Shown here: positions 1 to 47,190 of the stretch, one piece after another
Layout: the number at the start of each line of letters is the position of its first letter
How positions within the stretch are numbered: the stretch's first letter is position 1
Assembly (NCBI GenBank): GCA_003247225.1
Contig: QKAK01000098.1
Span: 1-59,405 of the forward strand
DNA: 59,405 bases
Source: Spirochaetota bacterium
GTDB lineage: Bacteria > Spirochaetota > Spirochaetia > Treponematales > UBA12059
Reading direction: 5' to 3'
Notes under the pieces: generated by a model
What the model was told of the DNA's origin: nothing
Databases searched by the model: none
What the model saw: only the letters and a program-made list of their open reading frames with translations
Made by a program: the position numbers and the translations under genes

Positions 1-322
1 GGAATGTATACAGGCCTCGTATATCATCTCGGCAGGGCCTGTCCAGGAGGCGGGCCCTTCGCATAGCGAGGGGCGCCGTCTCCTGGACACCCGCCTCCGC
101 GAGCATGCGAGGCCTGGGTACGAGCAAGGTTTACGGGGCGGCGCGTCGTGCCGGGTAGCGGGTAGTGATCACAATCCCGTTCGTGATTTGGTCGAAGCCG
201 TTACGTATGCCGACAGCCGCGCTTTATCTTGTTAATCATGTCCGCATTCATCGTAATCACACCCGCCTCCGCGGAAATGCGAGGCCTGTGTACGAGCCAG
301 ATTCTTAGGGCGCGCGTCGTGC
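1..322. repeat. Composite GC-rich intergenic repeat, copy A (left end cut by window edge)
   Basis: Same module order as 969-1340, 7303-7831 and 10259-10418. It starts with a long imperfect hairpin element: outer stem GTATACAGGCCTCG 6-19 / CGAGGCCTGGGTAC 108-121, apical stem TGTCCAGGAG 40-49 / CTCCTGGACA 80-89, ending GGGGCGGCGCGTCGTG at 150. A GTGATCAC module follows, then a 44-nt AT-rich block (224-267) identical to 1279-1322, then a half-hairpin. Confidence 0.85.
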
Positions 323-324
323 CA

Positions 325-692
325 TTATCTGGCTTTTTTAAAATACTGAATATTCTCTAGTTCTTTAAAGTGCTTGTCTTGTGTCCAAAGAGTTGCGTTA
401 TATTTCCTGCTTGTTGCATATATTATGCTATCTGCCATCGCAAGTTGATTCTCTTTTCCTAACTGCGCCGCAAGAACGGCAAGAGAAGAATCTAGATCAA
501 CCACTTTTCCTTGCTTCATGCTAAAATAGCGCTATCTTCATCTAGCTCAGTTATTAGTTTTTTAAATACTTCATAGAGCGTAATTGATGGTACGACTAGA
601 TCGTCCATATCTTCAATAACCGACGCCATTTTTTCTCCGACCTTACTGCCGGCAAAAAACTCAAGCCAACAAGAGGAATCGACGACATTCAT
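325..692 (-). pseudogene. vapC: PIN-domain toxin VapC, disrupted by a 1-nt frameshift
   Basis: ATG at 692 overlaps the vapB stop (ATGA). The N-terminal 58 codons (MNVVDSSCWLEFF...DEDSAILA*) stop at 516-518. The C-terminal part continues in another frame (ORF 325-519, MKQGKVVDLD...TQDKHF). Adding one T to the T4 run (complement of 523-526) joins both parts into a ~122-aa PIN protein. All four PIN acidic positions are still present. Confidence 0.8.
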
Positions 693-895
693 AATCTATC
701 TTCTTCTCGTATAATCTCTGTATTGATTCCCATAAAGATTCCCATTAAGTCCTTCATAGGACGGATCGGGACTAATTCAATACGATTCCCATACGTTATT
801 ACCTCTAAGGCCGTTCCGACCTTAAGTCCAATATTTTCTCTAATTTCCTTTGGAATAACGACTTGATATTTACTGGACACTGTAACGGTATTCAT
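689..895 (-). CDS. vapB: AbrB/SpoVT-type antitoxin VapB
   Basis: 68 aa starting MNTVTVSSKYQVVIPKEIRENIGL, typical of an AbrB/MazE swapped-hairpin antitoxin. The stop overlaps the vapC start. Low-GC gene in a high-GC context. Confidence 0.8.
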   Translation of the reverse strand: MNTVTVSSKYQVVIPKEIRENIGLKVGTALEVITYGNRIELVPIRPMKDLMGIFMGINTEIIREEDRL

Positions 896-942
896 CGATA
901 GATCCTTAGTACTACATTAGCTCTATCGATCAGGATTGTCAA
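894..942 (-). promoter_or_regulatory. Candidate vapBC promoter with flanking 9-bp inverted repeat (autoregulation operator)
   Basis: On the minus strand: TTGACA (937-942), 17-nt spacer, TAATGT (914-919). A perfect inverted repeat ATCGATAGA (894-902) / TCTATCGAT (922-930) brackets the -10 and overlaps the vapB ATG. Confidence 0.5.
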
Positions 943-968
943 ATCTTCTTCTGCGGGCGGCGTTGGCT

Positions 969-1340
969 GACGCGATACGCCGCCCCATACAAGATCGTGA
1001 ATGTATCCAGGCCTCATAGAGCATCTCGGAGGGTCCTGGCATAGGAAAACGCCCTGCGCTACGCTTGGTCGCTTTTCCTATGCCGCCCATCTCCTCGTGT
1101 ATGCGAGGCCGGGATACGAACAGCTTCCTCGGGGCGGCGCGTCGTGACCGTGCATGGGGCGGCTATCGGTTGTCGGAATTACGTTCGGCGGGGCGGCGCA
1201 TCGTGCCGGTTAGCGGATAGTGATCACAATCCCGTTCGCGATTCGGTCGAAGCTAACATGGCATCCGACACCCGCGTTTTATCTTGTTAATCATGTCCGC
1301 ATTCATCGTAATCACACCCGCCCCCGCGTGCATGCGAGGC
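969..1340. repeat. Composite GC-rich intergenic repeat, copy B
   Basis: Hairpin element 969-1146 with a different but still perfectly complementary apical stem (GGCATAGGAAAA 1038-1049 / TTTTCCTATGCC 1073-1084). It is followed by one ACCGTGCATG...GGCGG module, the GTGATCAC module, the 44-nt AT-rich block 1279-1322 and a half-hairpin. Confidence 0.85.
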
Positions 1341-1456
1341 TTCAGCTCGCGCCCGATCATGGGACGAGCTTGCGCCCGTCCGAGCGCTCGACTATGATTC
1401 AAGGACGCGCTCTTCCATGCAGGAGCGCTATCCTATCCAAGTCGCGGCGGTGAACC

Positions 1457-3994
1457 ATGAAGATCCTGACCCATACCATCAAGCCGAAGATCCCCGAGGC
1501 CCTCGCTCCCCTCGAGGAGATGGCCCATAACCTGTGGATATCGTGGAATTTCGACGCGATCATGCTGTTCATCAGGCTGGACTTCGACGTCTGGGCGCAA
1601 TCGAGGCAGAACCCGGCCAAGATGCTCGGCATGGTATCGCAGGCCCGCTTCGACGAGGCGGCCGTCGACGACTCGTTCCTGGCCGCGCTCCGCGACGTCT
1701 ACGCGAAGTTCCAGGCCTACAAGGACGGCCAGAGCTGGTATAAGGGCTCGTACGAGGATTCGGTGGCGTATTTCTCGATGGAATACGGCATGGACTCGTC
1801 CCTGCCCATCTACTCCGGCGGCCTCGGGATCCTGTCGGGCGACCACATGAAGACCAGCTCCGACCTCGGCCTGCCCCTCGTCGGCGTCGGCCTCCTGTAC
1901 CGGCAGGGCTACTTCAGGCAGTACCTGAACGCCGACGGCTTCCAGCAGGAGGAGTACCCGGAGAACGACTGGTACAACATGCCCGTGTACCGCCGCGAGG
2001 ACGCCTCGGGCCAGCCGGTCAAGATAACGGTCGACATGGCCGGGGAGCAGGTCGTCGCCCAGGTGTGGGAGGTCAAGGTCGGCCGGTCGTCGCTGTTCCT
2101 CCTCGACACCAACATCGACGAGAACACGCCAGCGAACCGCCTGATCACCGCCACCCTGTACGGAGGCGACAAGGAGACGCGCATCCGCCAGGAGATTCTC
2201 CTCGGCATAGGCGGCATCCGCGCGCTCAAGGCGGTCGGCGTCAACCCGGTCGTCGCGCACATGAACGAGGGCCACGCCGCCTTCCTCGGCCTCGAGCGCG
2301 TCCGCGAGGCGATGCAGTCGTCGGGCCTGAACTTCCAGCAAGCTTCGCAGGCGCTCTGGTCGACGAACATCTTCACGACCCATACCCCGGTACCCGCCGG
2401 CAACGAACGCTTCGGCGTCGACCTGATGGAGAAGTACTTCAAGGGCTGGGCCGCGACGCTCGGGCTCGACTGGAAGGCCTTCCTGGCGCTCGGCCGCGAG
2501 AGGCCCCACGACGACGCCGAGCCGTTCTGCATGACGGTGCTGGCGCTCAAGCTGTCCGCCTACGCGAACGGCGTCTCGGAGCTGCACGGCCACGTCTCCC
2601 GCGATATGTGGAAGGAGATCTGGCCGGGCCTGCCGACCGACGAGGTGCCGATAGGCTACGTGACCAACGGCGTCCACCCGCGCACCTGGATACCGTACAC
2701 CCTGCTCGAGGTGCTCGACCGCTATTTCGGGCCCCGCTTCGCCGAGGACCCGACTAACCTGGACATCTGGGACCGCATAGACCGGATCAGCGACGATGAG
2801 CTGTGGCGCACGCACGAGCGGCGGCGCGAGCGCCTCGTCGCGTTCGCCCGCGACCGCCTCAAGAAGGAGATGCGCCGGATGGGCGTCTCCGAGAAGGGCC
2901 TGGCCAGGGCCGACGACGCGCTGTCCCCGTCGGCGCTGACGATCAGCTTCGCCCGACGCTTCGCCACGTACAAGCGCGGCAACCTGCTCCTGACCGACCC
3001 CGACCGCCTGCTCAGGCTCCTGTCCGACAAGGACAGGCCGCTGCAGATCATCTTCGCCGGCAAGGCCCACCCGCACGACATGCCCGGCAAGGAGATCATC
3101 AAGGAGCTGGTGCACTTCTCGCGGCGCGACGACGTGGCGGGCCGCATCGTCTTCCTCGAGGACTACGACATGACGATGGCCCGCTATATGACCTCGGGCT
3201 CCGACGTCTGGCTCAACACCCCTAGGCGGCCCCTCGAGGCCTCGGGCACGAGCGGCATGAAGGCCGGGATGAACGGCGTGCTCAATTGCTCGATACTCGA
3301 CGGATGGTGGGCCGAGGGCTACGCTCCGGAGCGCGGCTGGGCCATCGGCAAGGGCGAGGAGTACGCCGACACCGAGCTGCAGGACGAGGTCGAGTCCAAG
3401 GCGCTGTACGACCTGCTCGAGCGCGAGATCATCCCGACCTTCTACGAGCGCGGCCGCGACGGCCTGCCCCGCGACTGGATCCGCATGATGAAGTGCTCGA
3501 TACGCGACGTCGGCAAGAACTTCTCGTTCCACCGGACCCTGATGGAGTATACCGATCGCTACTACCTGCCCGCGCTCGAGAACGCGCGCAGGCTCCGTTC
3601 CGAGGGCTTCGGCAAGGCCAAGGAGACCGCGGAGTACCTCGAGCTGGCCAGGCGCGAGTGGCAGCACGTAGCCGTCGAGGACGTCAGGTCTACGGCGAGG
3701 CCGGTCATGGAGCGGGGCGACGCGGTGCGCGTCGAGGCTCGCGTCCGCGTCGGCGCGCTCAAGCCGGAGCAGGTCCTCGTCGAGCTGTACCACGGCCCCG
3801 TCTCGAGCACCGGCGAGATCTACGCCCCCGCCAGGGTCGAGATGAAGGCCGGCGCGTCGCAGGGCGGCGCCTACGAGTACTCGGTGGAGGTGGCCTGCGA
3901 GTCGACCGGCCAGCACGGCTACTCGGTCCGCGTGCTGCCGCGGCACGAGGGACTCGCGCACCCGTTCATCCCGGGCCTGGTGCGCTGGGCCTGA
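1457..3994 (+). CDS. glgP: Alpha-glucan (glycogen/maltodextrin) phosphorylase, GT35
   Basis: 845 aa. N-terminal DUF3417-like region, SGGLGILSGDH, and the PLP-lysine region EASGTSGMKAGMNGVLNCSILDGWW. Confidence 0.93.
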   Translation: MKILTHTIKPKIPEALAPLEEMAHNLWISWNFDAIMLFIRLDFDVWAQSRQNPAKMLGMVSQARFDEAAVDDSFLAALRDVYAKFQAYKDGQSWYKGSYEDSVAYFSMEYGMDSSLPIYSGGLGILSGDHMKTSSDLGLPLVGVGLLYRQGYFRQYLNADGFQQEEYPENDWYNMPVYRREDASGQPVKITVDMAGEQVVAQVWEVKVGRSSLFLLDTNIDENTPANRLITATLYGGDKETRIRQEILLGIGGIRALKAVGVNPVVAHMNEGHAAFLGLERVREAMQSSGLNFQQASQALWSTNIFTTHTPVPAGNERFGVDLMEKYFKGWAATLGLDWKAFLALGRERPHDDAEPFCMTVLALKLSAYANGVSELHGHVSRDMWKEIWPGLPTDEVPIGYVTNGVHPRTWIPYTLLEVLDRYFGPRFAEDPTNLDIWDRIDRISDDELWRTHERRRERLVAFARDRLKKEMRRMGVSEKGLARADDALSPSALTISFARRFATYKRGNLLLTDPDRLLRLLSDKDRPLQIIFAGKAHPHDMPGKEIIKELVHFSRRDDVAGRIVFLEDYDMTMARYMTSGSDVWLNTPRRPLEASGTSGMKAGMNGVLNCSILDGWWAEGYAPERGWAIGKGEEYADTELQDEVESKALYDLLEREIIPTFYERGRDGLPRDWIRMMKCSIRDVGKNFSFHRTLMEYTDRYYLPALENARRLRSEGFGKAKETAEYLELARREWQHVAVEDVRSTARPVMERGDAVRVEARVRVGALKPEQVLVELYHGPVSSTGEIYAPARVEMKAGASQGGAYEYSVEVACESTGQHGYSVRVLPRHEGLAHPFIPGLVRWA

Positions 3995-4060
3995 GGCCGG
4001 AAGGCGTCGCGAGCGTTCCCGCCGGCGGCGACGGCCCACGCGCGCCGCCGGCGGCCGTCC

Positions 4061-4402
4061 CTACGCTCGGAGGCCCTCCAGGTTAGCCCGGGCCTCGGGC
4101 ACGTCGGCCATGAACCGCCGGATGCGCTCGCAGGCCTCGAACTCGGCGCACCCGGCGCAGGTAGCGAGCCCCTTGGCTATCGCGCACAGGCGCATATCGC
4201 ATTCGGCGCAATGGCCTATCTTGGCGCCGTCGCCGGAGCAGCCGACGCACTCGACCAAGGCCGGGTCCGCCGGGAAACCGAACGCGGCGTTCCACTTGGC
4301 GGCCGTCTCGGCCCTCAGCGCGTCGTCGTCGTTCAGCGTCGCTACGCGGGCGGGGCAGGCGGCGCAGTCGAGGCCGCAGTACGCTATCATCCTCTCCATC
4401 AC
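4061..4402 (-). CDS. DUF3795 Cys-rich (zinc-binding) protein
   Basis: 113 aa with YCGLDCAACP...CVGC...CAECDMRLC...CAGC, the cysteine pattern typical of DUF3795. Confidence 0.75.
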   Translation of the reverse strand: MMERMIAYCGLDCAACPARVATLNDDDALRAETAAKWNAAFGFPADPALVECVGCSGDGAKIGHCAECDMRLCAIAKGLATCAGCAEFEACERIRRFMADVPEARANLEGLRA

Positions 4403-4444
4403 ATGGCTCCTCTCGAATCGGAATGAAGCCAGGATAACGCGGCC

Positions 4445-5368
4445 TCACTGACAGTTCGCGTCAGCTATCCCGAGGGCCGCATCGCGGAGCGCGGCGCGCA
4501 GGCTATCGGGCTCGAGCACCCGGACGCCGGGGCCGAAGCCGAGCAGGAAGCGGACGAGCCAGCTCCCCGCGGGATACTCGAACGATAAGACGGTCCCGCC
4601 GCCGGGCGCCTCCTCGGCGACGGCCTCCGGTACGGCCTCGAGCAGGGCCCGCGCGACGCGCGGCTCGGCCGCGAGCCGTATCGCCGTGAATTCCTCGTCC
4701 CAGCCCGAGCCGAGGGCCGGCGCCGGCAGCCGGGACTCCGGGTCGTAGCGGTCGGCGAGGATACGGACGCCCGACATCCTCGACAGCTTGAAGAGGCGCC
4801 AATCGTCCCGCGACAGGCAATAGCCGTGCAGGTACCAGGCGGGGCCGAGCAGGGCCAGCGTGAACGGCTCGACGCGGCGCTCGCTTGCCTCGCCGGCGGC
4901 GTCGCGGTAGGAGAACGACACGACCCGCCGCTCGGTTATCGCCCTCCTGACCGACAGCACCGCCGACGGGTCGGGCTCGGGCGCGCCCCACGGCGACGGG
5001 GCGGCCATGATGGGCGGGGGCGGCCCGGCGGCTCCGGGCCGCCCCCCGCCGAGCGACGACAGCTTGCCTAGGGAACGGGCCAGCCGCTCGTCCTTGAGCG
5101 TATCCGAGAAGCCCGACAGCAGCCCGGTCAGGTCGCGCAGCTCGTCGCGGGTCAGGAAGCTCCTGTCCACGCGGTAGGCGGGATCGATCGAGTAGCCGCC
5201 GCCGGTGCCGGCCTCTGCGCATACCGGCACGCCGGCCACGCAGAGCGAGTCGATGTCGCGGTACACGGTGCGCTCGGATACCTCGAAGCGCGCGGACAGC
5301 TCGGCCGCGGTCTTCTTGCCCTCGTTGAGCAGGCAGTCGAGGATGGCTATGAGCCGTTCGTGCTTCAT
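4445..5368 (-). CDS. YafY-family transcriptional regulator (HTH + WYL domain)
   Basis: 307 aa. N-terminal MKHERLIAILDCLLNEGKKTAAELSARFEVSERTVYRDIDSL, followed by WYL-like and C-terminal WCX-like regions. Confidence 0.85.
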   Translation of the reverse strand: MKHERLIAILDCLLNEGKKTAAELSARFEVSERTVYRDIDSLCVAGVPVCAEAGTGGGYSIDPAYRVDRSFLTRDELRDLTGLLSGFSDTLKDERLARSLGKLSSLGGGRPGAAGPPPPIMAAPSPWGAPEPDPSAVLSVRRAITERRVVSFSYRDAAGEASERRVEPFTLALLGPAWYLHGYCLSRDDWRLFKLSRMSGVRILADRYDPESRLPAPALGSGWDEEFTAIRLAAEPRVARALLEAVPEAVAEEAPGGGTVLSFEYPAGSWLVRFLLGFGPGVRVLEPDSLRAALRDAALGIADANCQ

Positions 5369-5448
5369 TCCTGGCTCCTCGCGTCGTCGCGTTGACTAGT
5401 TCGTCGAGCGCTTATACTATCGCGTAAACCGATACTCGTGGAGCCGTC

Positions 5449-7320
5449 GTGAACCCTACCGTACGCCCGCGCCCCTGTTCCCCGTGGGGGGAGCGCCTCG
5501 ACCCGTCGTCGCCGTTACCCGAATATCCGAGGCCGCAGCTATCCAGGCCCGACTGGCTGTCGCTCAACGGCCCCTGGGACTACGCGATCCGTCCGTCGGC
5601 CGCCGGGCCGCTATCGTCCGAGCCGGCCCCCGATTCATGGGACGGGCCGATCGTCGTGCCGTTCGCCGTCGAGTCGGCGCTGTCCGGCGTCGGCAGGGCG
5701 CTCCGGCCCGACGAGACGCTCTGGTACCGGAGGACCGTACGCGTCCCCGAGGCCTGGGCGGGCCGCCGCGTCGCGCTGCGCTTCGAGGCGGTCGACTACC
5801 TCGCGGCCGCGTTCGTAGACGGCCGCCCCGTAGGCGAGCACCGCGGCGGCTACCTGCCGTTCTCGTTCGAGCTGCCGCCCGTCGGGCCGGGCGAAGGATC
5901 CGTCGAGCGCGAGATAGTCGTCGCCGTGCGCGACCCGAGCGACGCGGGCCTCCAGCAGCGCGGCAAGCAGGCGCTCGAGCCGGCCGGCATCCTCTACACG
6001 GCGACCAGCGGCATCTGGCAGACCGTCTGGCTCGAGCCGCTCCCGGCCGGCAACGCCATCCTCGGCTTCCGGGCCGAGGCCGCGGCGGGCCTCGACGGCG
6101 TCGAGGCCCTCGTCGACGCGGAGCGGCCCGCCGAGGTCGTCATCCGCGCGGCCCTGCCGGACGGCGGCCGCGTCGAGGCGCGAGGCCGCTCCGGCGAGCC
6201 CATCGCCGTCGCGGTACCGGAGGCGCGCCGCTGGTCGCCCGACGATCCGTACCTCTATGACGTCGTCGTCGAGCTGCTCGGGCCGGGCGGCGCGGTAACG
6301 GACCGGGCCGGCTCGTACTTCGCGATACGCCGCGTCGACCTCGGCCCGGCGCCCGGCTCCTCCTCGGCAGGGCGGACGGACGGGCGCCCCTTCGTACGCT
6401 TGAACGGCGAGCCTATCCTGATCCACGCGCCGCTCGACCAAGGCTACTGGCCGGAGTCGGGCATGACCCCGCCGGCCGACGAGGCACTCGTCTTCGATAT
6501 CGAGGCCATGCGGGCTCTCGGCTTCAACGGCCTCCGCAAGCACGTCAAGATAGAGTCGCGGCGCTTCTACTGGCACTGCGACCGCCTCGGTACCCTCGTC
6601 ATCCAGGACGCCGTGTCCGGGGGCGTCAACCGATCGGCCGGGAACTTCAAGGTCGCCATGCCGATGATACTCGGCTTCCACCTCGGCGACCGCTCGCGGC
6701 GGGCAATGCGCCTCGCGGGCCGGGCCGACCCCGACGACCGCGCCGAGTTCGAATCCGACCTGGCCGGCATGATAGGCCTGCTCAGGCCCCATCCGTCGGT
6801 CGTCATGTGGACCGTCTTCAACGAGTCCTGGGGCCAGTTCGAGTCGGAGCGCGTCGTCGAGGAAGTGCGCCGGATCGACCCGACCCGCCTCGTCGACGCC
6901 GTCTCCGGCTGGCACGACCGGGGCGGCGGCGACTTCCGCAGCCGCCACACCTACCTGGTCAAGCTGCGCCGCCCTCCGAGGTCCGATCGTCGGCCGTACT
7001 TCGTCTCCGAGTACGGCGGCTACAACCTCGCGGTGCCGGGCCACATGTGGGACGACGAGGCGCGCTTCGGCTACCGCTTCTATGACGACGGCGCGTCGCT
7101 CCAGGAAGGCTACGCGCGCCTGATCCGCGACGAGCTCGTACCCCTCGTACGCCGCGGCCTCCGCGTCGCGGTCTATACCCAAGTCTCGGACGTCGAGATC
7201 GAGAGCAACGGGTTCTACACCTACGATCGCAAGGTCCTCAAGTTCGACGCCGCCACGGTCCGTGCGCTCAACGAGGAGCTGTACGCGGCCCACGAAAGGC
7301 TACACGACGCGCCGCCCTGA
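5449..7320 (+). CDS. Glycoside hydrolase family 2 protein (sugar-binding, Ig-like and TIM-barrel domains)
   Basis: 623 aa from a GTG start with GTGGAG upstream. Contains WYRRTVRVPEAW...LRFEAVDYLAAAFVDGRPVGEHRGGYLPFSFEL and NESWGQ. The last codons and the stop lie inside the repeat's terminal inverted repeat (7303-7320). Confidence 0.8.
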   Translation: MNPTVRPRPCSPWGERLDPSSPLPEYPRPQLSRPDWLSLNGPWDYAIRPSAAGPLSSEPAPDSWDGPIVVPFAVESALSGVGRALRPDETLWYRRTVRVPEAWAGRRVALRFEAVDYLAAAFVDGRPVGEHRGGYLPFSFELPPVGPGEGSVEREIVVAVRDPSDAGLQQRGKQALEPAGILYTATSGIWQTVWLEPLPAGNAILGFRAEAAAGLDGVEALVDAERPAEVVIRAALPDGGRVEARGRSGEPIAVAVPEARRWSPDDPYLYDVVVELLGPGGAVTDRAGSYFAIRRVDLGPAPGSSSAGRTDGRPFVRLNGEPILIHAPLDQGYWPESGMTPPADEALVFDIEAMRALGFNGLRKHVKIESRRFYWHCDRLGTLVIQDAVSGGVNRSAGNFKVAMPMILGFHLGDRSRRAMRLAGRADPDDRAEFESDLAGMIGLLRPHPSVVMWTVFNESWGQFESERVVEEVRRIDPTRLVDAVSGWHDRGGGDFRSRHTYLVKLRRPPRSDRRPYFVSEYGGYNLAVPGHMWDDEARFGYRFYDDGASLQEGYARLIRDELVPLVRRGLRVAVYTQVSDVEIESNGFYTYDRKVLKFDAATVRALNEELYAAHERLHDAPP

Positions 7321-7831
7321 TGCTCGGGAATGTATACAGGCCTCGCCGCCGTTAACCTGCGAGCGGAAGCGAGCCAGGTTAAATGACGGCCGGCGATCGC
7401 CGCGACAGTCGGCGATCGCGATCATCTCGGAGGGTCCTGTCCAGAAGCCGTGACCCTCGCTCACGCGAGGGCCGACGACTCGGAGACACCCCCCTCCGCG
7501 TTTATGCGAGGCCTGGGTACGAGCAAGGTTTTCGGGGCGGCGCGCCGTGACCGTGCATGAGTCGGGTATCGGTAGCCTGGATTCAGTACGGCGGGGCGGC
7601 GCGTCGTGACCGTGCATGAGTCGGGTATCGGTAGTCTGGATTCAGTACGGCGGAGCGGCGCGTCGTACCGGTTAGCGGGGCGGATATCAGTCGCCTCTAT
7701 CGGACCCGGTCGAACCATGGTTGGCATCCGATAGCCGCGTTTTATCTTGTTCATCATGTCCCTATTAGTCGTATCGAACGCTCCTCCCCATATGCGCGAG
7801 GCCTGGGTACGAATAAGGATCTCGGGGCGGC
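7303..7831. repeat. Composite GC-rich intergenic repeat, copy C (most complete)
   Basis: The left terminal repeat CACGACGCGCCGCCC (7303-7317) is the reverse complement of GGGCGGCGCG(C/T)CGTG at 7535-7549. A 75-bp unit of the 11150-11612 array is nested at 7346-7420. A 59-bp module is tandemly repeated about 2.3 times (7533-7669, 2 mismatches between full units). The AT-rich block and a half-hairpin sit at the right end. Confidence 0.85.
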
Positions 7832-7848
7832 AGGCTCGATCGGGAGGG

Positions 7849-8559
7849 CTAGAAAGAAACCTCCGCCGACGGCTTCACCTCGACCCCCGGCATCAGCGAC
7901 CAGGCGCGGTTCATCGCCGCAATCTCCTCCCGGGCCCCGCCCGCGTCCCGTACCGTATGCGTATCCGACGGTACGACGACGCGGTAGCCCCTCGCCAACG
8001 CGCCCTTGACCGTGGCGTTGACGCAGCCTCCGCTCGACATGCCGCAGATCACCACCGTGCCCACCCCGGCCCGGTCGAAGATACCCGTCAAGCCCGAGCC
8101 GTTGAAGCCGTCGCTCGCCGTCTTGACGTACGGATAGTGCCCTGGCCCCTCGGCGAGCGGCGCGGCGAGCTCGAATTCGGGCGATCCCATGCCCATTCCG
8201 AACTCGTCCATATAACCCCACGCGACCATGGCCCCGGCCACGTCGGCCCGGGCGACGAGCGAGGCTATGCCCGAGAGTACCGTTTCCTGGTCGAAGGCAG
8301 GCATCATGCCCGCCTGAATGTCTATGACCAGCAACGCGACGCCGGCGAGCGAGGCCCGATCCGCCGGCGAGTACAGAGGCGGGACGGGCTCGCGCTCGAA
8401 GCGCGACGCGACGGACGCCCGGCGGATCGCCGCCTCGTCCGGTACGGGGGCCTCCGCCGTCGCCGGGCGAGCGTCGGTCCCGGGATAGGTAGAGCAGGAG
8501 CAGAGCGCCAGTAGGAAAGCCGCCGCGCACGCTGGCGCGACGAAAGACGTACGACGCAT
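7849..8559 (-). CDS. Isochorismatase-family cysteine hydrolase, predicted lipoprotein
   Basis: 236 aa. Signal peptide with lipobox (FLLALCSC), LLVIDIQ, and VVICGMSSGGCVNATVKGALARGYRVVVPSD. Confidence 0.75.
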   Translation of the reverse strand: MRRTSFVAPACAAAFLLALCSCSTYPGTDARPATAEAPVPDEAAIRRASVASRFEREPVPPLYSPADRASLAGVALLVIDIQAGMMPAFDQETVLSGIASLVARADVAGAMVAWGYMDEFGMGMGSPEFELAAPLAEGPGHYPYVKTASDGFNGSGLTGIFDRAGVGTVVICGMSSGGCVNATVKGALARGYRVVVPSDTHTVRDAGGAREEIAAMNRAWSLMPGVEVKPSAEVSF

Positions 8560-8671
8560 GATATCCTCCTCGAGTATAGTCGGGCCTGGACTGATTATAC
8601 TGTGTCACTTATAATACGACAAGAATATTTATGACACTATTACTGAATCAAGAGAACCGAAGGAGGAACCC

Positions 8672-9403
8672 GTGGATCGTCGCGTAGCCATGGCCTGCCT
8701 GTTCTCCGCCGCGCTGTCCGCGGGGGCCCAGGAAGCTTTCTCGTTCTGCTCGGCCGACGGCCTCGAGCTCCGGGCCGACCTCTACCTGCCCCACCCGGAC
8801 TCGTACCCGCTCGTCATCCTGTTCCACATGGCCGGCTCGAGCCGGGGAGAGTACCGCTCCATCGCGCCGGGGCTGAACCGGCTCGGCTACAACGCGCTGG
8901 CCGTCGACCTGCGTTCCGGCGGCTCGTCCGCGGGCGTCGTCAACGAGTCCGCCCGGCGGGCCCGGGAAGACGGCCTGCCCGCGTCCTACCTGGACGCCCT
9001 GCCCGACATGGTCGCGGCGCTCGCCTGCGCCCGCGAACGGTTCGCGAGGGGGCGCGTCATACTGTGGGGCAGCTCGTACTCCGCGTCGCTGGCGCTCAAG
9101 ATGGCCGGTGACGAACCGGCCTGCTGCGACGCGGTGCTCGCCTTCTCGCCGGGCGAGTACTTCTACCCGCGGGACCTCGTCGCCTCGAGCGCCCGCAGCA
9201 TCCGCGTCCCGACCTTCGTTACCTCCTCCCGCGCCGAGGCCGGCGACTGGCGACCCATCTTCGAGCTGATACCCATCGCGGTTAAGACGGGCTTCGTGCC
9301 GACGGCGGCCGGCGCCCACGGGTCTCCGGCGCTCGAACCCGGGGCTGACGGGGCGGAAGAATATTGGGCGGCGGTACGGACATTCCTCGCGTCCCTGCGA
9401 TAG
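8672..9403 (+). CDS. Secreted alpha/beta hydrolase (dienelactone-hydrolase-like)
   Basis: 243 aa from a GTG start 5 nt after AGGAGG (8661-8666). Signal peptide, and a nucleophile-elbow-like LWGSSYSASLAL. Confidence 0.65.
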   Translation: MDRRVAMACLFSAALSAGAQEAFSFCSADGLELRADLYLPHPDSYPLVILFHMAGSSRGEYRSIAPGLNRLGYNALAVDLRSGGSSAGVVNESARRAREDGLPASYLDALPDMVAALACARERFARGRVILWGSSYSASLALKMAGDEPACCDAVLAFSPGEYFYPRDLVASSARSIRVPTFVTSSRAEAGDWRPIFELIPIAVKTGFVPTAAGAHGSPALEPGADGAEEYWAAVRTFLASLR

Positions 9404-9415
9404 GCTGGCGGGAGC

Positions 9416-10246
9416 ATGGCGGGATCCACCGAATCCAAGGTATTCACGCTCTACGGAGCGCTCCTCGACGACGGCGACTACGCCGCCTTCTCGCTCGGGA
9501 CGCTCTACGCCTTCCTGGGTCCGCTCGGCGTCTCCGAGGAGGCCGCCAGGCTCGCCCTATCGCGTATGGCCCGTAAGGGCTACCTCGGCTCTAGGCGCAG
9601 GGGCCGGTCGAGCTTCTACTTCGTCGAGGGGCCGGGCCGCGAGAAGATAGAGGCCGCGGCGGCGCGATCGGTACGGCGGCGGGACGAGGGGCCCTGGGAC
9701 GGCCGATTCCGCCTCGTCTCCTACGAGGTGCCGGAACGGCTCAGGGAGGAGCGTACGGCCCTGGCCGCCGCGCTCGCGGCCGCCGGATACGCCCGGGCGG
9801 CGGCGGGGCTCTGGGTAGCCGCGGTCGATCCCCCTCCGGCCGTCGAGGCGCTCCTCGCGTCGGACGCATACGCGGGCCTAGCCTCCTCCTGGTCGGCCGA
9901 GTACCGCGGGGACGCGCGAGCCTACGCCCGGCGCCTCTACCGCCTGGACGAGCGGGCCGCGAGCGTCCGCGGGTTCCGGGACCGCTTCGCCGCCGAGGCC
10001 GACGGCCTCGCCGATGCGATAGCCTCCGGGACGCCGCCAGCGGACGAAGAATGCTTCCGGCGGTATTTCGAGGCGATGACCGATTACGTCGGGCTCATGG
10101 GCCTCGTCCCGCCGCTACCGCCCGAACTCCTGCCGGAAGACTGGCCCGCGCCGTCGGCTAACGAGGCGTACGCACGCTACCGCGACCTCGTGCGCGATGG
10201 TACCAACGCCTACGTCGCCGCCCACTACGAGCCGTACGGCGAGTAG
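9416..10246 (+). CDS. PaaX-like transcriptional regulator
   Basis: 276 aa. The N-terminal winged helix (LGTLYAFLGPLGVSEEAARLALSRMARKGYL) and a C-terminal helical domain resemble PaaX-family repressors. Confidence 0.6.
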   Translation: MAGSTESKVFTLYGALLDDGDYAAFSLGTLYAFLGPLGVSEEAARLALSRMARKGYLGSRRRGRSSFYFVEGPGREKIEAAAARSVRRRDEGPWDGRFRLVSYEVPERLREERTALAAALAAAGYARAAAGLWVAAVDPPPAVEALLASDAYAGLASSWSAEYRGDARAYARRLYRLDERAASVRGFRDRFAAEADGLADAIASGTPPADEECFRRYFEAMTDYVGLMGLVPPLPPELLPEDWPAPSANEAYARYRDLVRDGTNAYVAAHYEPYGE

Positions 10247-10258
10247 GAGGATCTTGAC

Positions 10259-10418
10259 CGACGCGGGGTTCCTCACGACGCGCCGCGGGTTCCTTACGAC
10301 GACCCGCCCTGATGCTCCAGGAATGCATCCTCGCCTCGTATAGCCTCTCGGAGGGCCCCGCGTACGAGCAAGGATCTCGGGGCGGAGCGTCACGCCGTAC
10401 ATGAGCGGGTTCGATTGG
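10259..10418. repeat. Composite GC-rich intergenic repeat, truncated copy D
   Basis: CACGACGCGCCGC...CCGCCCTGATGCTCCAGGAATGCATCC...CTCTCGGAGGGCC..GCGTACGAGCAAGGATCTCGGGGCGGAGCGTCACGCCGTACATGAGCGGGTTCGATTGG is collinear with the left and right arms of copies A-C, but the central hairpin is missing. Confidence 0.7.
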
Positions 10419-10763
10419 TGCCTTCGGCGCAAAGGAAATCCGTATAAGTACATTGAATCGAACGCCCATATGAGTACAACTCGTAAAACCTGAATAATAC
10501 GGCTATGTTTAATGCAAAACAGAAACTTGATGGTATTCATTGAATATTTTATATTTGCTATGTAGTCGTTTTGGTTGATATACAACGCTTATACAGAAAA
10601 TATATGACTATCTTTATGATAGTCTTTCGTTGCTCGATCTATTTATATGCTTAAGAGCGGAGAATCGTTTGAACATAAAAGTATACAGCAATAAAATTAC
10701 CACTATATCGGGCTAGTTATTTTCAACTTGTACTATCTGGCAAGCGCAATAAGGAGCAATCTT

Positions 10764-11015
10764 ATGATGATGGGCATGCTTATTATCGGCGGGCTGATTA
10801 TACTAACCGCAATCGGCGTGGCTCCGAATATAATATCCGTCATTAAGCAAAAGAATCCAGAAGTGAATGACGATTCAAAAATCGTAGAGATTGAAAAACG
10901 CATCCAACTGCTTGAAGAGCAAAGCGTAGCGCAAAATTCAAAAATCAACGAACTAGAAACTGAAAATAAATTTTTGACTAGGCTTATCGAAAATAGAAAT
11001 ACCGAGAAAAGCTAA
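10764..11015 (+). CDS. Small single-pass membrane protein with C-terminal coiled coil (hypothetical)
   Basis: 83 aa from an ATG 7 nt after AAGGAG (the ORF track opens at a TTG at 10728). MMMGMLIIGGLIILTAIGVAP is a TM helix and the rest is heptad-like (IEKRIQLLEEQ..INELETENKFL). It lies in a strongly AT-rich islet. Confidence 0.5.
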   Translation: MMMGMLIIGGLIILTAIGVAPNIISVIKQKNPEVNDDSKIVEIEKRIQLLEEQSVAQNSKINELETENKFLTRLIENRNTEKS

Positions 11016-11149
11016 CGAACGCTTCAACCTGATAGCGATAGTATCGCGATTTGTGCTTACTGCGCCATGAGGGGGCGCGCTACGGGCTAAGCTCATGGTA
11101 TCGGGCGCCGCATCAGATGTCGGCGAGCATAGAGACGCCGTTCGGCGCG

Positions 11150-11612
11150 GCCTGCGATCGCGTAGCGTACCCGGCGCCGCCGTTAACCCGCGAGCGGAAG
11201 CGAGTCGGGTTGAACGATGGCCGGCGATCGCCGCGACAGTCGGCGATCGCGCTGCGTACCCGGCGCCGCCATTATCCCGCGAGCGCAGCGAGTCAGGTCG
11301 AACGACGGCGAGCGATCGCCGCGGCAGTCGGCGATCGCGCAGCGTACCCAGCGCCGCCGTTAACCCGCGAGCGCAAGCGAGTCAGGTCGAACGACGGCGA
11401 GCGATCGCCGCGATTAGTCGGCGATCGCGCCGCGTACCCGGCGCCGCCGTTAACCCGCGAGCGCAGCGAGTCAAGTCGAATGACGGCGAGCGATCGCCGC
11501 GACAGTCGGCGATCGCGCAGCGTACCCGGCGCCGCCGTTGACCTGCGAGCGCAAGCGAGTCAGGTCGAACGACGGCGAGCGATCGCCGCGATTAGTCGGC
11601 GATCGCGCCGTT
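11150..11612. repeat. Tandem array of five 88-90 bp units, each with two hairpins
   Basis: Units start at 11165, 11254, 11342, 11432 and 11520 (GCGTACCCGGCGCCGCCGTTAACCCGCGAGCG.AAGCGAGTC.GGT.GAACGA.GGC..GCGATCGCCGCGACAGTCGGCGATCGCGC). Hairpin 2 is GGCGATCGCCG / CGGCGATCGC. The period is not a multiple of 3. Confidence 0.9.
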
Positions 11613-11725
11613 TGTCGATGGGTATTGGTTTTTAGTGTCCGACTCCCACCGGTAATAAAAATACAGCCCGAGGCGTTAGCCTCGGGCTGTTGCTAAGCGG
11701 GAAACGGGAGTCGGACCCGCGACAT
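11613..11725 (-). other. Duplicated tRNA-Gly 3' fragment plus terminator copy (att-like direct repeat)
   Basis: 11695-11725 (AAGCGGGAAACGGGAGTCGGACCCGCGACAT) is identical to 11824-11854, which is the variable loop through the 3' end of the intact tRNA. The flanking about 80 bp, including a hairpin with a T-tract (11665-11688), parallels 11744-11823. Confidence 0.8.
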
Positions 11726-11783
11726 GCGCCGCTGCGCGTCGCTTGTCGAGAGGAATCGGTATTTTAATGTCCGACTCCGCCGC

Positions 11784-11817
11784 ATATAAAAATAGCCCGA
11801 GGCTAACGCCTCGGGCT
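11784..11817 (-). terminator. Rho-independent terminator of tRNA-Gly
   Basis: On the minus strand: AGCCCGAGGC-GTTA-GCCTCGGGCT followed by ATTTTTATAT, immediately 3' of the tRNA. Confidence 0.75.
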
Positions 11818-11824
11818 ACATGTA

Positions 11825-11896
11825 AGCGGGAAACGGGAGTCGGACCCGCGACATCCACCTTGGCAAGGTGGCGCTCTACCACTGAGCTATTCCCGC
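11825..11896 (-). tRNA. tRNA-Gly (anticodon GCC)
   Basis: Minus strand GCGGGAATAGCTCAGTGGTAGAGCGCCACCTTGCCAAGGTGGATGTCGCGGGTCCGACTCCCGTTTCCCGCT folds as a cloverleaf: 7-bp acceptor stem, D arm GCTC/GAGC, anticodon stem CCACC/GGTGG with loop TTGCCAA, and T arm GCGGG/CCCGT. CCA is not encoded. Confidence 0.93.
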
Positions 11897-11972
11897 GTCG
11901 TTGCGTTGAGAAGATGCCTTAAAACGGGGTAGAAAGTCAAGGACGCGGCCGTGCCGCCGCGCGGAGAAACGT

Positions 11973-12221
11973 ATGGAAGATCGGCGCCATGTACTACTCG
12001 AGGAAAAGCCCTTCGGCTATCGGTTGCTGAAAGGACGTACGGCCCAGGCGACCTTCAGTGGACGGGTCGTGGCGACGCTCGTCGGCAAGGACTACGACCG
12101 GCTCGAGCGAGCGATAGCGGCGGGCGACGAGTACGGGCTCCAGCTGTTCCTGGCCAAGGCGACCGGCCAGTTCAAGCACGGTAACGAGCGGGCCGGCAAG
12201 GGCCCGCGCCGGACGGCGTAG
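11973..12221 (+). CDS. Hypothetical protein (82 aa)
   Basis: ATG preceded by GGAGAA. Host-like GC and third-position bias. No family recognised. Confidence 0.4.
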   Translation: MEDRRHVLLEEKPFGYRLLKGRTAQATFSGRVVATLVGKDYDRLERAIAAGDEYGLQLFLAKATGQFKHGNERAGKGPRRTA

Positions 12222-13814: not shown

Positions 13815-14746
13815 AGTCCGCCCTTTCCGTCGGCTTCGCCGGATAACGCCTCGTCCCCGTCCTCGGCCGCCCGGCCCGCCTTGATCGCCCGCTCCTCGCG
13901 CCGCCTGGCGAAATGCGCGCGGATCGACTTGGGCGTCAACTCGAAGCCGCCCATCAGGCCGCGCGGGCGGCCTATCATGATGCCGATGACCGCGAGGCCG
14001 TAGACGACCAGGCGCCACTTATCCACCGCCCGCAGGAGCTCGGGCAGGAAGGTGAGCACCACGGCGCCGAGCACCGAGCCGGATATCGAGCCGAGCCCGC
14101 CGAAGATCACGATGATCGTCAGCTCGGTCGACTTGACCATGCTGAACATCTTCGGCTGGATGAAGGTCATGTAGTGGCCGAGCAGGGCTCCGGCGACGCC
14201 CGCGTACGCGGCGCTGATGACGAGGGCGAGCATCTTGTAGCGGAAGGTATCGATGCCGGCCACCTTGGCCGCGAGCTCCTCCTCGCGGACGGCTATCATG
14301 TTGCGGCCGTGCCGCGAGCGCACGAGGTTGGCCAGCAGGACGACGCCGATCACGTCGAGTATCAGGATGTTGAGCAGGGTGGTGCGCGGCGGTATGCCGG
14401 GCCAGCCGCGCGCGCCGCCGAGGCCCTGGAAGTTGTCGAGTATCAGCCGTATCGCCTCGCCGAAGCCGAGGGTGGCGATGCAGAAGTAGTCGCCCTTGAG
14501 CTTGAGCGTGGCGCGGCCTATGAGCCAGCTGACGCCTGCGGCGACGAGGGCCGCCGCGGCTATGGCCGCGACGAACGGCAGGCCGAGCAGCTTGGTGCAG
14601 ACGGCCGCCGAGTAGGCGCCTATCGCCATGAAGCCGGCGTGGCCGAACGAGAACAGCCCGGCGAAGCCGGTCAGGAGGCTCAGGCCGAGCACGGCTATGA
14701 GGTTGATGCCCGAGAGCATCAGGATGCCTTCGATGTACGAACTCAT
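13811..14746 (-). CDS. livM: Branched-chain amino-acid ABC transporter permease (LivM type)
   Basis: 311 aa, polytopic, with [14 protein letters not shown]. Position in the operon supports the call. Confidence 0.88.
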
Positions 14747-33445: not shown

Positions 33446-34342
33446 ATGAGCCGCTCGCTCGTATACCAGACGGATTTCGGCACCTCCGACGGCGCCGTGG
33501 CAGCCATGTACGGCGTGGCGCTCAAGGTCGACCCGGCCCTGGCCATCTTCGACCTGACGCACGACATACCGCAGTACAATATCTGGGAGGCCTCGTACCG
33601 GCTCGTGCAGACGGTCCAGTACTGGCCGGCCGGCACCGTGTTCGTATCGGTCGTCGACCCGGGCGTCGGCAGCTCGCGCCGCAGCGTCGCGGTCAGGACG
33701 GCCGCCGGCCAGATCGTCGTCACGCCGGACAACGGCACGCTGACGCACCTCAAGCTGCTGCAGGGCGTGGCGGAGGCTCGGCTCCTGGTCGAGGACGCCA
33801 ACCGGCTCTCGGGCTCGGAGCTGTCCTATACCTTCCACGGCCGGGACGTGTACGCCTATACCGGCGCCAGGCTAGCCTCGGGCCAGATCGCGTTCGAGGA
33901 CGTCGGCCCGGCCCTCGACCCGGCCTCCATCGTCGAGCTGGACCACGTGGACGCGGTCCGTTCCGGGGACGCGATCGAGGGCACGATAGACGTGCTCGAC
34001 GTTCGCTTCGGCAGCCTGTGGACGAACATACCGCACTCGATGTTCATAGGGCTCGGCGTCGACTACGGGAAGCGCGTCGAGGTATCGATACGCAACGACA
34101 CCCGCGAGGTCTACCGCAATACGATGGCCTACGCGCGCTCCTTCGCCGACGTGTCGCTCGGCGAGCCCCTCGCGTACGTCAACTCGGTGCTCAACCTGGC
34201 GGTGGCGATCAACCAGGGCTCGTTCGCCCGGGCCTACAACATAGGCACCGGGCTGTCCTGGAAGATCGCCGTCCGCAGGGCGCCGCGTATCGTGTACGAA
34301 CGACTAGCGATCCCTATACAGGTACTCGGGCGCCAGGTATAG
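33446..34342 (+). CDS. SAM hydrolase / SAM hydroxide adenosyltransferase family protein (DUF62)
   Basis: 298 aa. QTDFGTSDGAVAAMYGV, VSVVDPGVGSSRR, and TPDNGTLT. Confidence 0.85.
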   Translation: MSRSLVYQTDFGTSDGAVAAMYGVALKVDPALAIFDLTHDIPQYNIWEASYRLVQTVQYWPAGTVFVSVVDPGVGSSRRSVAVRTAAGQIVVTPDNGTLTHLKLLQGVAEARLLVEDANRLSGSELSYTFHGRDVYAYTGARLASGQIAFEDVGPALDPASIVELDHVDAVRSGDAIEGTIDVLDVRFGSLWTNIPHSMFIGLGVDYGKRVEVSIRNDTREVYRNTMAYARSFADVSLGEPLAYVNSVLNLAVAINQGSFARAYNIGTGLSWKIAVRRAPRIVYERLAIPIQVLGRQV

Positions 34343-46679: not shown

Positions 46680-47060
46680 CTACCGCCCCCTACGCTTCTC
46701 CTTCTTCCTCTGCCGCTTTCGCTCGTACCGATCCCGTTCCTCGACGGCGGCCTCGGCCCTCCGTAGCGCCTTCCGCTCGCTCAGGTACGCGGAGTTGAGC
46801 CGCCCGAAGGCCTCCATCGACTTCGAGACGAGCCGTCCTTGCTCGTTCCCCGACCTACGCCCCTTGAGGCGTACGGGGCCGTCACCCGCGAGGCAACGGA
46901 CGGACGGGTACGTCTCGAGATAGAAGTGGAGGAGATCGTTATTCGTGGGTTCCGGGCCGAACGTGTGCTTCCCGATACGATGCGTACCGTCTTCGCCTAT
47001 CTTCTCTATAACGGCGACCCAGAATTGACCGTCGAAGATAACGGTCGAGACGACTTCCAT
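46680..47060 (-). CDS. yjdF: YjdF-family protein (DUF2992)
   Basis: 126 aa. The N-terminal VIFDGQFWVAVIEK...HTFGPEPTNNDLLHF and a Lys/Arg-rich C-terminal tail are typical of DUF2992. Confidence 0.75.
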   Translation of the reverse strand: MEVVSTVIFDGQFWVAVIEKIGEDGTHRIGKHTFGPEPTNNDLLHFYLETYPSVRCLAGDGPVRLKGRRSGNEQGRLVSKSMEAFGRLNSAYLSERKALRRAEAAVEERDRYERKRQRKKEKRRGR

Positions 47061-47190
47061 GATTTACCCCCTCGGGTACACCTACCCGGGGGCAAAAACG
47101 GACATCGTTCGATGGCTACTGGACCAAGACGATTGGTCGCCCCGACTACCTACGGGGCCGTGTTTTCTTTTTGCCCGAAACGTGAGCTTC
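47061..47190 (-). ncRNA. Structured 5' leader of the DUF2992 gene; candidate yjdF-class riboswitch
   Basis: A closing stem GGGCAAAAA / TTTTTGCCC encloses three hairpins (CCCCG/CGGGG, GACCAA/TTGGTC, CATC/GATG). A terminal hairpin CGGGTA/TACCCG is next to the SD GAGGGGG, and the upstream CCCCC could alternatively sequester that SD. Confidence 0.4.

Follow-up and report, generated by a model that had tools for sequence, protein, structure and literature searches.

A dispersed mosaic repeat with a structure-conserved foldback core in a narrow lineage of uncultured spirochaetes

Within the first 10.4 kb of a contig from an uncultured spirochaete, four intergenic sites share the same modules in the same order, and the longest of these modules folds back on itself as a hairpin whose sequence differs from copy to copy. 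What kind of element is this, what keeps its fold, and what is its relation to the genes it borders? The DNA analysed, referred to here as the window, is the whole stretch of 59,405 nt of contig QKAK01000098.1 (positions 1-59,405, forward strand; assembly GCA_003247225.1, Spirochaetota bacterium, Treponematales, UBA12059). Its GC content is about 69%, and its glucan phosphorylase is 81-87% identical to proteins of metagenome-assembled genomes (MAGs) of uncultured Spirochaetia and Spirochaetales. The repeat family is genuine and dispersed, and its range is limited to a narrow lineage of uncultured spirochaetes with high GC. On balance, though by no great degree, we think it probable that it is a selfish, non-autonomous, non-coding and lineage-restricted mosaic repeat, of the class of miniature inverted-repeat transposable elements (MITEs), bacterial interspersed mosaic elements (BIMEs) and neisserial intergenic mosaic elements (NIMEs), which also serves as portable homology for cassette turnover.

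A full composite unit is about 320-530 bp long, and the order of core, 59-nt units, tail and right half is kept across loci. The core, about 175 nt, is closed by a perfect 16-bp outer stem (CACGACGCGCCGCCCC / GGGGCGGCGCGTCGTG) in which seven of 14 pairs are invariant; the 16-mer is the most conserved part of the element. It is not self-complementary, and its internal CGTC is base-paired within the outer stem. After the core come zero to three units, each made of about 43 nt followed by the 16-mer, which thus recurs at a spacing of 58-59 nt up to four times per full unit. The tail that comes next measures about 110 nt and includes an AT-rich stretch that is conserved (TTTTATCTTGTTTATCATGTCC..CATTATTC). 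Last in the full unit stands a solo right half of a core (model positions ~113-178), closing once more with the 16-mer. Each right terminus is trailed by at least 20 nt of the next module, which makes the unit asymmetric. Solo left halves are present on contigs L010 and L017 (L-numbers designate contigs with matches to the repeat pattern, from a MAG or from sludge and digester metagenomes). The unpaired loop TATATCATCTCGG is nearly invariant, and the cores have no coding capacity. Three identities were considered for the tail and rejected. It folds no better than its shuffles (z = -0.66 and +1.12 for two tails), which dismisses a structured RNA; a 9/12 promoter consensus match occurs in tail C only; and a small open reading frame (ORF) is excluded by the change of its ATG to CTG in many copies and by indels that break the frame.

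Three core subfamilies share their termini. Plain cores are 175-178 nt long, cores of 247-251 nt contain a second repeat, the type-2 unit, nested at a fixed point (window copy C, L025 and L005), and in cores of 148-164 nt the type-2 unit replaces the centre (L006 and L016). The type-2 unit carries two copies of GCGATCGC, an octamer called HIP1 in cyanobacteria. Apart from its positions in the cores, it is found in tandem arrays, and its first hairpin is only imperfectly kept in the array copies; type-2 units also occur in L006, L009, L012, L016, L018 and L024. At the left end of the core, four independent copies (window 10259-10307; L005 ~5711-5735; L013 1726-1745 / L022 7279-7298; L033 ~110-130) show the opening 9-12 nt of the terminus (CACGACGCG..) twice in tandem, the extra one sitting 17-21 nt upstream of the genuine start. 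This may be the footprint of an insertion or repair mechanism.

The window sites are listed in Table 1. Cores A, B and C each form one long hairpin, and no shuffle folded as well: copy A reaches -90.8 kcal/mol (z = -6.95) and copy B -89.7 kcal/mol (z = -6.44), with copy C between them in z-score. The apical arms of copy A (TGTCCAGGAG/CTCCTGGACA) and copy B (GGCATAGGAAAA/TTTTCCTATGCC) diverge while remaining complementary, and the outer stem of copy B contains the GTATCC/GGATAC pair; the apical allele of copy B is also found in L015. The GH2 gene (5449-7320) runs into the left terminus of copy C, from which it takes its final six codons and its stop. The 75-nt insert of copy C shares 84-92% identity with the units of the array at 11154-11608, and cores of the subfamily of copy C, with the identical insertion point, occur in L005 and L025. 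The 59-nt module is reported by Tandem Repeats Finder at 7533-7670 (period 59, 2.4 copies, 95% matches). The 151-321 block is 87% identical to 1206-1340, with nhmmer model positions 115-178 at 259-321. In copy D the left arm is fused directly to the right arm, the apical and central part being deleted, and its left terminus bears 21-nt tandem duplications (10259-10307, period 21, 2.4 copies; Tandem Repeats Finder). The type-2 array at 11154-11608 is non-coding, since its period of 89 is not a multiple of three.

These observations bear out the description in the initial annotation, which had been made from the sequence alone: four intergenic regions with the same ordered modules, an approximately 170-bp core folding as one long hairpin, apical stems that differ between copies A and B yet stay complementary, and, in copy C, a 75-bp insert of a second repeat type and a 59-bp module repeated about 2.3 times. 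To this can be added that each core's tail runs into a solo right half, that the tail has no significant fold of its own, and that copy D is degenerate. The recurrence is well beyond chance, with five occurrences of the right-arm 20-mer at up to three mismatches against none in 100 shuffles, and seven of the terminal 16-mer against a shuffled mean of 0.9. The covariance model finds only the four sites, with zero matches in the remaining 49 kb of the window. Nor are the repeats an assembly artefact, because a contig from a separate sample (SRR7216773) reproduces window positions 7515-11193 at 99.8% identity; it ends in repeats on both sides.

Table 1. Repeat modules and associated features in the window (positions in nt)
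Feature	Position	Strand	Basis or remark
Core foldback copy A	1-150	+	Covariance model 158 bits, model positions 28-178; first ~27 nt lost at window edge
Tail A (151-258), then solo right half of core (259-321) ending in terminal motif	151-321	+	nhmmer
Toxin-antitoxin cassette between copies A and B, GC 0.39	323-968	-	Pfam, ORFs
Core foldback copy B	971-1146	+	Covariance model 155 bits, full model
One 59-nt unit (43 nt + 16-mer; 1147-1205), tail B (1206-1313), truncated right half (1314-1345)	1147-1345	+	
Core foldback copy C	7303-7549	+	Fold -140 kcal/mol, z = -6.64
Nested 75-nt type-2 repeat unit within copy C	7346-7420	+	Two small palindromes with GCGATCGC; replaces TAT of core
Two further 59-nt units, terminal 16-mer closing each	7550-7667	+	Tandem Repeats Finder
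Tail C (7668-7777), then solo right half (7778-7831)	7668-7831	+	
Degenerate copy D (core part 10274-10394)	10259-10418	+	Covariance model 35 bits, E = 4e-5
Type-2 tandem array, 5.1 units, period 89	11154-11608	+	Tandem Repeats Finder score 732, 90% matches
Strain-specific segment, 4.27 kb	7553-11822		Absent from L025

Is the fold itself conserved? Pairing was examined in 19 distinct full cores (alignment A4) on the RNAalifold consensus structure, against 500 shuffles and against controls in which the 3' partner was slid by 1-3 columns. Standard pairs occupy 95.9% of the cells, compared with 89.0% in the shuffles, and 14 pairs are changed on both sides, compared with a shuffled mean of 8.1; none of the 500 shuffles reaches either value. 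Counted by cells, 51 are changed on both sides against a shuffled mean of 14.9. In the slid controls only 40-52% is paired, with 2-5 double-changed pairs. It is the apical helix that carries the signal, with 10 compensatory pairs out of 14; in the outer 16-bp stem and at the tip (CCCTCGC/GCGAGGG) the sequence itself is conserved. At least six apical alleles exist (TGTCCAGGAG.., TGTCGACGAG.., TGCCAAAGAG.., TGACCAAGAG.., TGTCCAGGAAG.. and GGCATAGGAAAA..), and all are self-complementary. On the plus strand, G:U pairs outnumber A:C mismatches 34 to 15 when cells are counted and 17 to 15 when pairs are counted, which is no firm evidence for one RNA strand as the selected form.

How such alleles arise can be read from a second strain. 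Contig L025 comes from the same species as the window: window positions 1334-7553 align with L025 13332-7113, and 11823-18780 with 6945-1, at 96-97% identity. At the site of copy B, the flanks and the left arm are nearly identical in the two strains, and the apical stem and right arm form a different self-complementary allele; L025 has an additional unit of about 268 nt there (right half, 59-nt unit, tail, right half). At the site of copy C the apical stems differ and are partly mismatched, as in a chimera, and the window has two 59-nt units and a tail other than that of L025. Two other contigs, L012 and L018, with 94.7% identity, are set apart by a single 154-nt unit that has 16-mers at its bounds. 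By these comparisons, a copy changes when patches of it undergo gene conversion by another copy or when it recombines unequally with one. Because orthologous copies in two strains carry wholly different self-complementary stems, much of the paired change is replacement of whole stems, that is, inherited module swapping, and not stepwise compensation. The existence of several perfectly paired alleles nevertheless needs either a constraint on pairing or a mechanism that regenerates palindromes. Selection on structure, as put forward in the initial annotation, is supported: the 14 compensatory pairs are not matched by any shuffle, and the stem differences are not random (14 pairs and 51 cells, compared with 2-5 pairs in the slid controls), although much of the change is whole-stem replacement and there is no clear RNA-strand signal.

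The family is found well outside the window. An exact 25-mer had no match in 185,579 GTDB species representatives. A degenerate right-arm pattern (GCGAGGCCNNNNTACGAN{10,12}GGGGCGGC), whose matches were vetted by nhmmer and the covariance model R1, was found in three contigs of one MAG, JAKQKE01 (Spirochaetota bacterium USDV_maxbin.089), and in 25 contigs from activated-sludge and digester metagenomes, 24 of them confirmed by nhmmer or covariance model. The matches in L007 (Streptomyces) and L031 are unsupported by the family models and were set aside as chance. Collapsing duplicate contigs leaves about 20 distinct genomic sites in at least two genomes, an outcome at odds with the possibility that the element occurs only here, as local duplications. 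Full copies score 149-205 bits with R1 on the forward strand, far above the 51-95 bits on the reverse strand, so that the orientation of a copy is well defined.

Beyond this lineage the searches were negative. No copy is present in about 77 kb around the syntenic phosphorylase in the closest available relatives (84-87% protein identity), and no match came from distant blastn against plasmid and phage collections or from two scans of viral contigs. In Rfam 15, no element was matched at the gathering score over the whole window, nor meaningfully at E values up to 5 over positions 1-12000; an NsiR4 match at 7394-7435 on the minus strand is at chance level (17.6 bits against a gathering score of 40, E = 5). 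Exact-protein look-ups returned no record for the phosphorylase or the antitoxin described below, and only the same strain for the PaaX-family regulator. In the literature and Rfam 15 we found no such element described for the phylum or for this uncultured wastewater lineage. The initial statement that the repeat matches no known class agrees with the lack of any Rfam, plasmid or phage record.

In seven of nine multi-copy loci all copies have the same orientation. Ten of 20 copies begin just past, or overlapping, the stop codon of an upstream gene that runs in their own direction: nine of these left termini are offset by -35 to +27 nt and one, in L028, by 117 nt. Six of the 20 occupy the upstream regions of divergent genes. 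On the downstream side, 12 genes share the orientation of the copy and nine converge on it. Segments between elements are often short and poor in GC; those of 0.5-1.4 kb have a GC content of 0.39-0.55, against about 0.69 for the genome. The cassette genes face either direction relative to the elements.

The cargo of these segments includes toxin-antitoxin pairs. The cassette between copies A and B contains a MazE/AbrB-type antitoxin (689-895; Pfam MazE_antitoxin, 1.5e-12) and a PIN toxin (Pfam, 2.8e-07) split over two ORFs, 516-692 and 325-519. The gene for this VapC-like toxin (325-692, minus strand) has probably become a pseudogene in the window. The corresponding site of L025 holds a 125-residue ORF of intact length (14245-14622), whose listed strand is opposite to that expected from the alignment. 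VapBC is among the toxin-antitoxin types encoded by the cassettes; an HicAB pair lies between copies in L010, and L006 holds Phd/RelE-like and MazEF-like pairs, as read from their translations. In L006 and L009 the order is element, Phd/RelE, element, MazEF, element, all in one orientation and with genes stopping 3 nt short of the left terminus. L016 has at least three cassettes between co-oriented elements and also holds lipoproteins; between its elements, positions 3338-7183 (GC 0.53) encode Rhs-repeat and Rhs-core fragments with F5/8 type C domains and a MORN-repeat protein, which look like orphan polymorphic-toxin and immunity modules. Type I restriction-modification genes adjoin elements in four loci. 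Single copies stand beside housekeeping genes (aminotransferase, methyl-accepting chemotaxis protein, RsgA, PepF and RsmE), and the phosphorylase-to-GH2 block between copies consists of conserved core genes.

The segment that L025 lacks begins in the right side of copy C, reaches the 3' end of a tRNA-Gly gene and contains an isochorismatase, an alpha/beta hydrolase, a PaaX-family regulator, copy D and the type-2 array. It also carries a low-GC ORF of 95 residues (10728-11015) with coiled-coil and transmembrane character and no Pfam match. No integrase is encoded within it. L024 and L020 show a comparable insertion beginning with element modules. The tRNA-Gly(GCC) gene is at 11825-11896 on the minus strand; within 11604-11896 it is followed by a 129-nt tandem duplication of 1.9 copies, in which the terminator hairpin and the final ~35 nt of the tRNA appear a second time (11696-11730). 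It looks like an att-type remnant of integration at a tRNA 3' end; L025 has a different terminator and is without the duplication.

The initial annotation named a MITE-like or REP/BIME-like element, a recombination site and a structured RNA as possible identities. Several known systems resemble the element in part. With MITEs such as ERIC/IRU and Correia/CREE it shares its non-coding nature, a size of 100-250 bp, terminal inverted repeats that fold the whole element into an imperfect hairpin, intergenic positions often just past stop codons, size variants by indels at fixed points, and copies that vary between close strains in regions of plasticity (PMC3184786). It has a perfect 16-bp terminal inverted repeat and, like them, is small, lacks a transposase gene and is dispersed, at about 20 sites. 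It differs in having no TA or other target-site duplication, in sequence, in a right end that runs past the inverted repeat into further modules, and in a terminal motif reiterated in direct orientation. No cognate insertion sequence (IS) was identified, and no transposase with these ends was seen in the window or in 38 loci. A classical MITE was rejected on the missing target-site duplication, the lack of a common target and the asymmetric right end, and a target specificity of IS200/IS605 type on the last 4-6 nt before the left end, which are not conserved.

BIMEs and REPINs, doublets of repetitive extragenic palindromes (REPs), are mobilised by REP-associated tyrosine transposases (RAYTs). 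In common with them, the spirochaete repeat combines a short conserved motif with several other modules in a mosaic, type-2 units being interspersed, has inverted pairs that form a compensating hairpin, and is intergenic and limited to a lineage. In NIMEs, where dRS3 repeats flank RS modules, a short repeat is reiterated between conserved modules of about 50-150 bp, in arrays downstream of genes, much as here; another likeness is that arrays of NIMEs and minimal mobile elements border strain-variable toxin and immunity cassettes exchanged by homologous recombination. NIMEs have no long foldback core and no sequence similarity to the spirochaete repeat. The 16-mer is no palindrome of 20-40 bp and has no unpaired GTAG/CGTC tag, and the hairpin is about 175 nt long; a CGTC-tagged REP was rejected, as those have stems of 8-9 bp and loops of 4-5 nt, and the 16-mer is also unlike dRS3, a 20-bp CGTC-type palindrome (PMC3733652). 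As there is no target-site duplication, tagged REP palindrome or attC core site and no similarity in Rfam or the plasmid and phage collections, the element is a member of no named repeat family; in its working it is closest to foldback MITEs and mosaic REP/dRS3 arrays.

The mobile mosaic repeat that we favour would work as follows. A transposase or recombinase acting in trans would have placed the copies, and the reiterated 16-mer is its probable recognition site, given that the termini stay constant among subfamilies in which the interior has been replaced. Once inserted, the copies would be homogenised and reshuffled by gene conversion and homologous recombination with one another, and co-oriented copies would offer portable homology for gain, loss and exchange of toxin-antitoxin, restriction-modification and Rhs cassettes. 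Toxin-antitoxin modules between direct repeats may be expected to persist because they penalise deletion, an argument taken from chromosomal integron arrays. Stem pairing would be kept since the folded single strand matters, either as DNA in mobilisation or repair or as RNA in read-through transcripts. Dispersal, lineage restriction, conservation of structure, module swapping, co-orientation and cassette association are the parts of this reading with direct support. Several points weigh against it. No target-site duplication or common target is seen at 20 left ends or at the last 16-mer of the arrays. The right boundary is not the right terminal repeat, giving an asymmetric unit unlike a classical MITE bounded by terminal inverted repeats. 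The search for transposases and recombinases covered 30 neighbour genes scanned singly, 92 locus ORFs (as a summary table), 38 loci and about 300 kb of the lineage. Among the 30 neighbours and 92 ORFs, no transposase, recombinase or integrase occurs beside any copy or the window tRNA-Gly and none recurs, and no RAYT gene (IS200/IS605-type Y1) was seen in these or in the 300 kb. No true empty site in a near-identical strain was recovered, which leaves mobility as an inference. The window copies all lie in 10.4 kb, with zero in the other 49 kb, which local duplication explains equally well. Finally, the nearly invariant loop and the conserved tail hint at a host function beyond this model.

Alternatively, the hairpin could be primarily a functional RNA, transcribed within neighbouring mRNAs as a 3' stabiliser, a processing site for RNase III or RNase E, or an insulator between genes, and its spread would be secondary. 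The position of half of the left termini near a co-oriented stop, with copy C even supplying one, speaks for this, as do perfect stems of about 22 bp, which would be RNase III substrates, and the G:U excess by cells; MITEs such as ERIC and Correia have such RNA-level effects (PMC3184786). The excess vanishes when pairs are counted, and the copies upstream of divergent genes, together with the nearly balanced tally of downstream genes, leave sense transcription not assured. There is no U-tract after the hairpin, for which reason an intrinsic terminator was rejected. Truncated copies and solo halves have been retained, and Rfam has no matching family. We regard an RNA element as unlikely, although it is the least unlikely of the alternatives. 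Host proteins could instead bind the DNA, with the 16-mer and AT-rich tail as sites for a nucleoid-associated protein, a gyrase-like or integration host factor (IHF)-like protein or a regulator, in an architectural or regulatory role as for some BIMEs. The conservation of the 16-mer and half of the outer-stem pairs, its regular recurrence and a tail conserved without fold, ORF or consensus promoter fit this, yet it leaves unexplained the long apical stem, variable and still paired, as well as the lineage restriction, the clustering with foreign cassettes and the rapid turnover of modules, making it quite improbable. Most improbable of all is that the copies are debris of local duplication in one hypervariable island by tRNA-Gly, with neither mobility nor function. 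Four copies in 10.4 kb near the tRNA, none elsewhere in the window, and shifts in unit number by unequal recombination would suit such debris; related copies by unrelated housekeeping genes on many contigs and in another genome largely refute it, and subfamilies with the same internal insertion point at unrelated sites, like the pairing excess, are not expected from it.

The element might also be a structure-specific recombination site like attC, at which a dedicated recombinase would recognise the folded single strand and insert or excise units of one cassette plus one element, giving rise to co-oriented cassette arrays without a canonical integron. Like attC sites and their integrase-less clusters (CALIN), the copies are imperfect hairpins that keep their structure while the sequence varies, are alike within a species, and stand co-oriented between small cassettes that are often toxin-antitoxin pairs. 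The arrays of L006/L009, where genes end so close to the left terminus, the cassettes of L016, and the low GC of cassettes, as in sedentary chromosomal integrons, agree with this, and cassette content at element borders differs between strains; integrons are known in Spirochaetes (PMC4889954, PMC8352920). The ends, however, read ...CACGACG and CGTCGTG..., with no RYYYAAC or GTTRRRY core sites and no conserved AAC/GTT pair at either boundary of any copy. The length of 148-251 nt exceeds the 57-141 nt of attC, and the outer stem is a perfect 16-bp duplex without an unpaired central spacer, conserved bulges or extrahelical bases. Many copies stand singly between housekeeping genes, some blocks between copies are conserved core genes, and cassette genes face either way. 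No integron integrase was seen among the neighbour genes of the examined loci, and no tyrosine recombinase near any array. Identity with attC was rejected for the absent core sites and the wrong length, and an attC-like site in the wider sense seems to us doubtful, somewhat more so than a functional RNA. More speculative still is that foldback and 16-mer are the recombination site of an undescribed, integron-independent cassette system at many chromosomal positions; a structure-recognising recombinase would then capture and shuffle toxin-antitoxin, restriction-modification and Rhs cassettes, with the apical stem, paired despite its variation, as the counterpart of the variable stem of attC. 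Were the repeat such a structure-specific site, it would be a second, independent invention of the integron principle.

The family is a new example of a familiar bacterial repeat class and not a new kind of system. It adds to the phylum a documented repeat family with a covariance model, defined modules and strain-level comparisons. Its main value lies in the module swapping that it documents and in its tie to cassettes of conflict genes; the repeats mark places where accessory conflict genes turn over. Since orthologous copies can have different self-complementary stems, the apparent covariation of a palindromic repeat can stem from module swapping, which calls for caution in structure-based RNA discovery. 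In practice the repeats break short-read assemblies (contigs L034, L018, L015 and L033 end in them) and cause gene-end artefacts, such as the GH2 stop codon inside copy C.

The repeats are themselves targets of other elements. In L011 (460-2165) the tail module is interrupted, directly ahead of TCATGTTTATCC, by a group II intron in antisense orientation, with its reverse transcriptase ORF at 977-2165; further intron-related sites are L014 5036-5184, L021 4511-4723 and L024 1-70. The junction sequence is found again at another locus, L024, which suggests that the intron uses the repeat as a homing site. In L019 (200-1500) an IS3-family element, recognised from its OrfA/OrfB-like translations, lies inside an array of 59-nt units with 16-mers on both sides. 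Both are insertions into the repeats and not their partners.

Two RNA calls were made elsewhere in the window. An 84-nt tRNA-Ala(CGC) predicted by ARAGORN at 36186-36269 on the minus strand lies inside a long ORF of high GC3 (34304-36724, minus strand) and is not supported by the Rfam tRNA model, which makes it a probable false positive. At 47082-47179 on the minus strand there is an azaaromatic (yjdF) riboswitch aptamer (58.9 bits, gathering score 45), just upstream of an ORF of 126 residues on the same strand (46680-47060).

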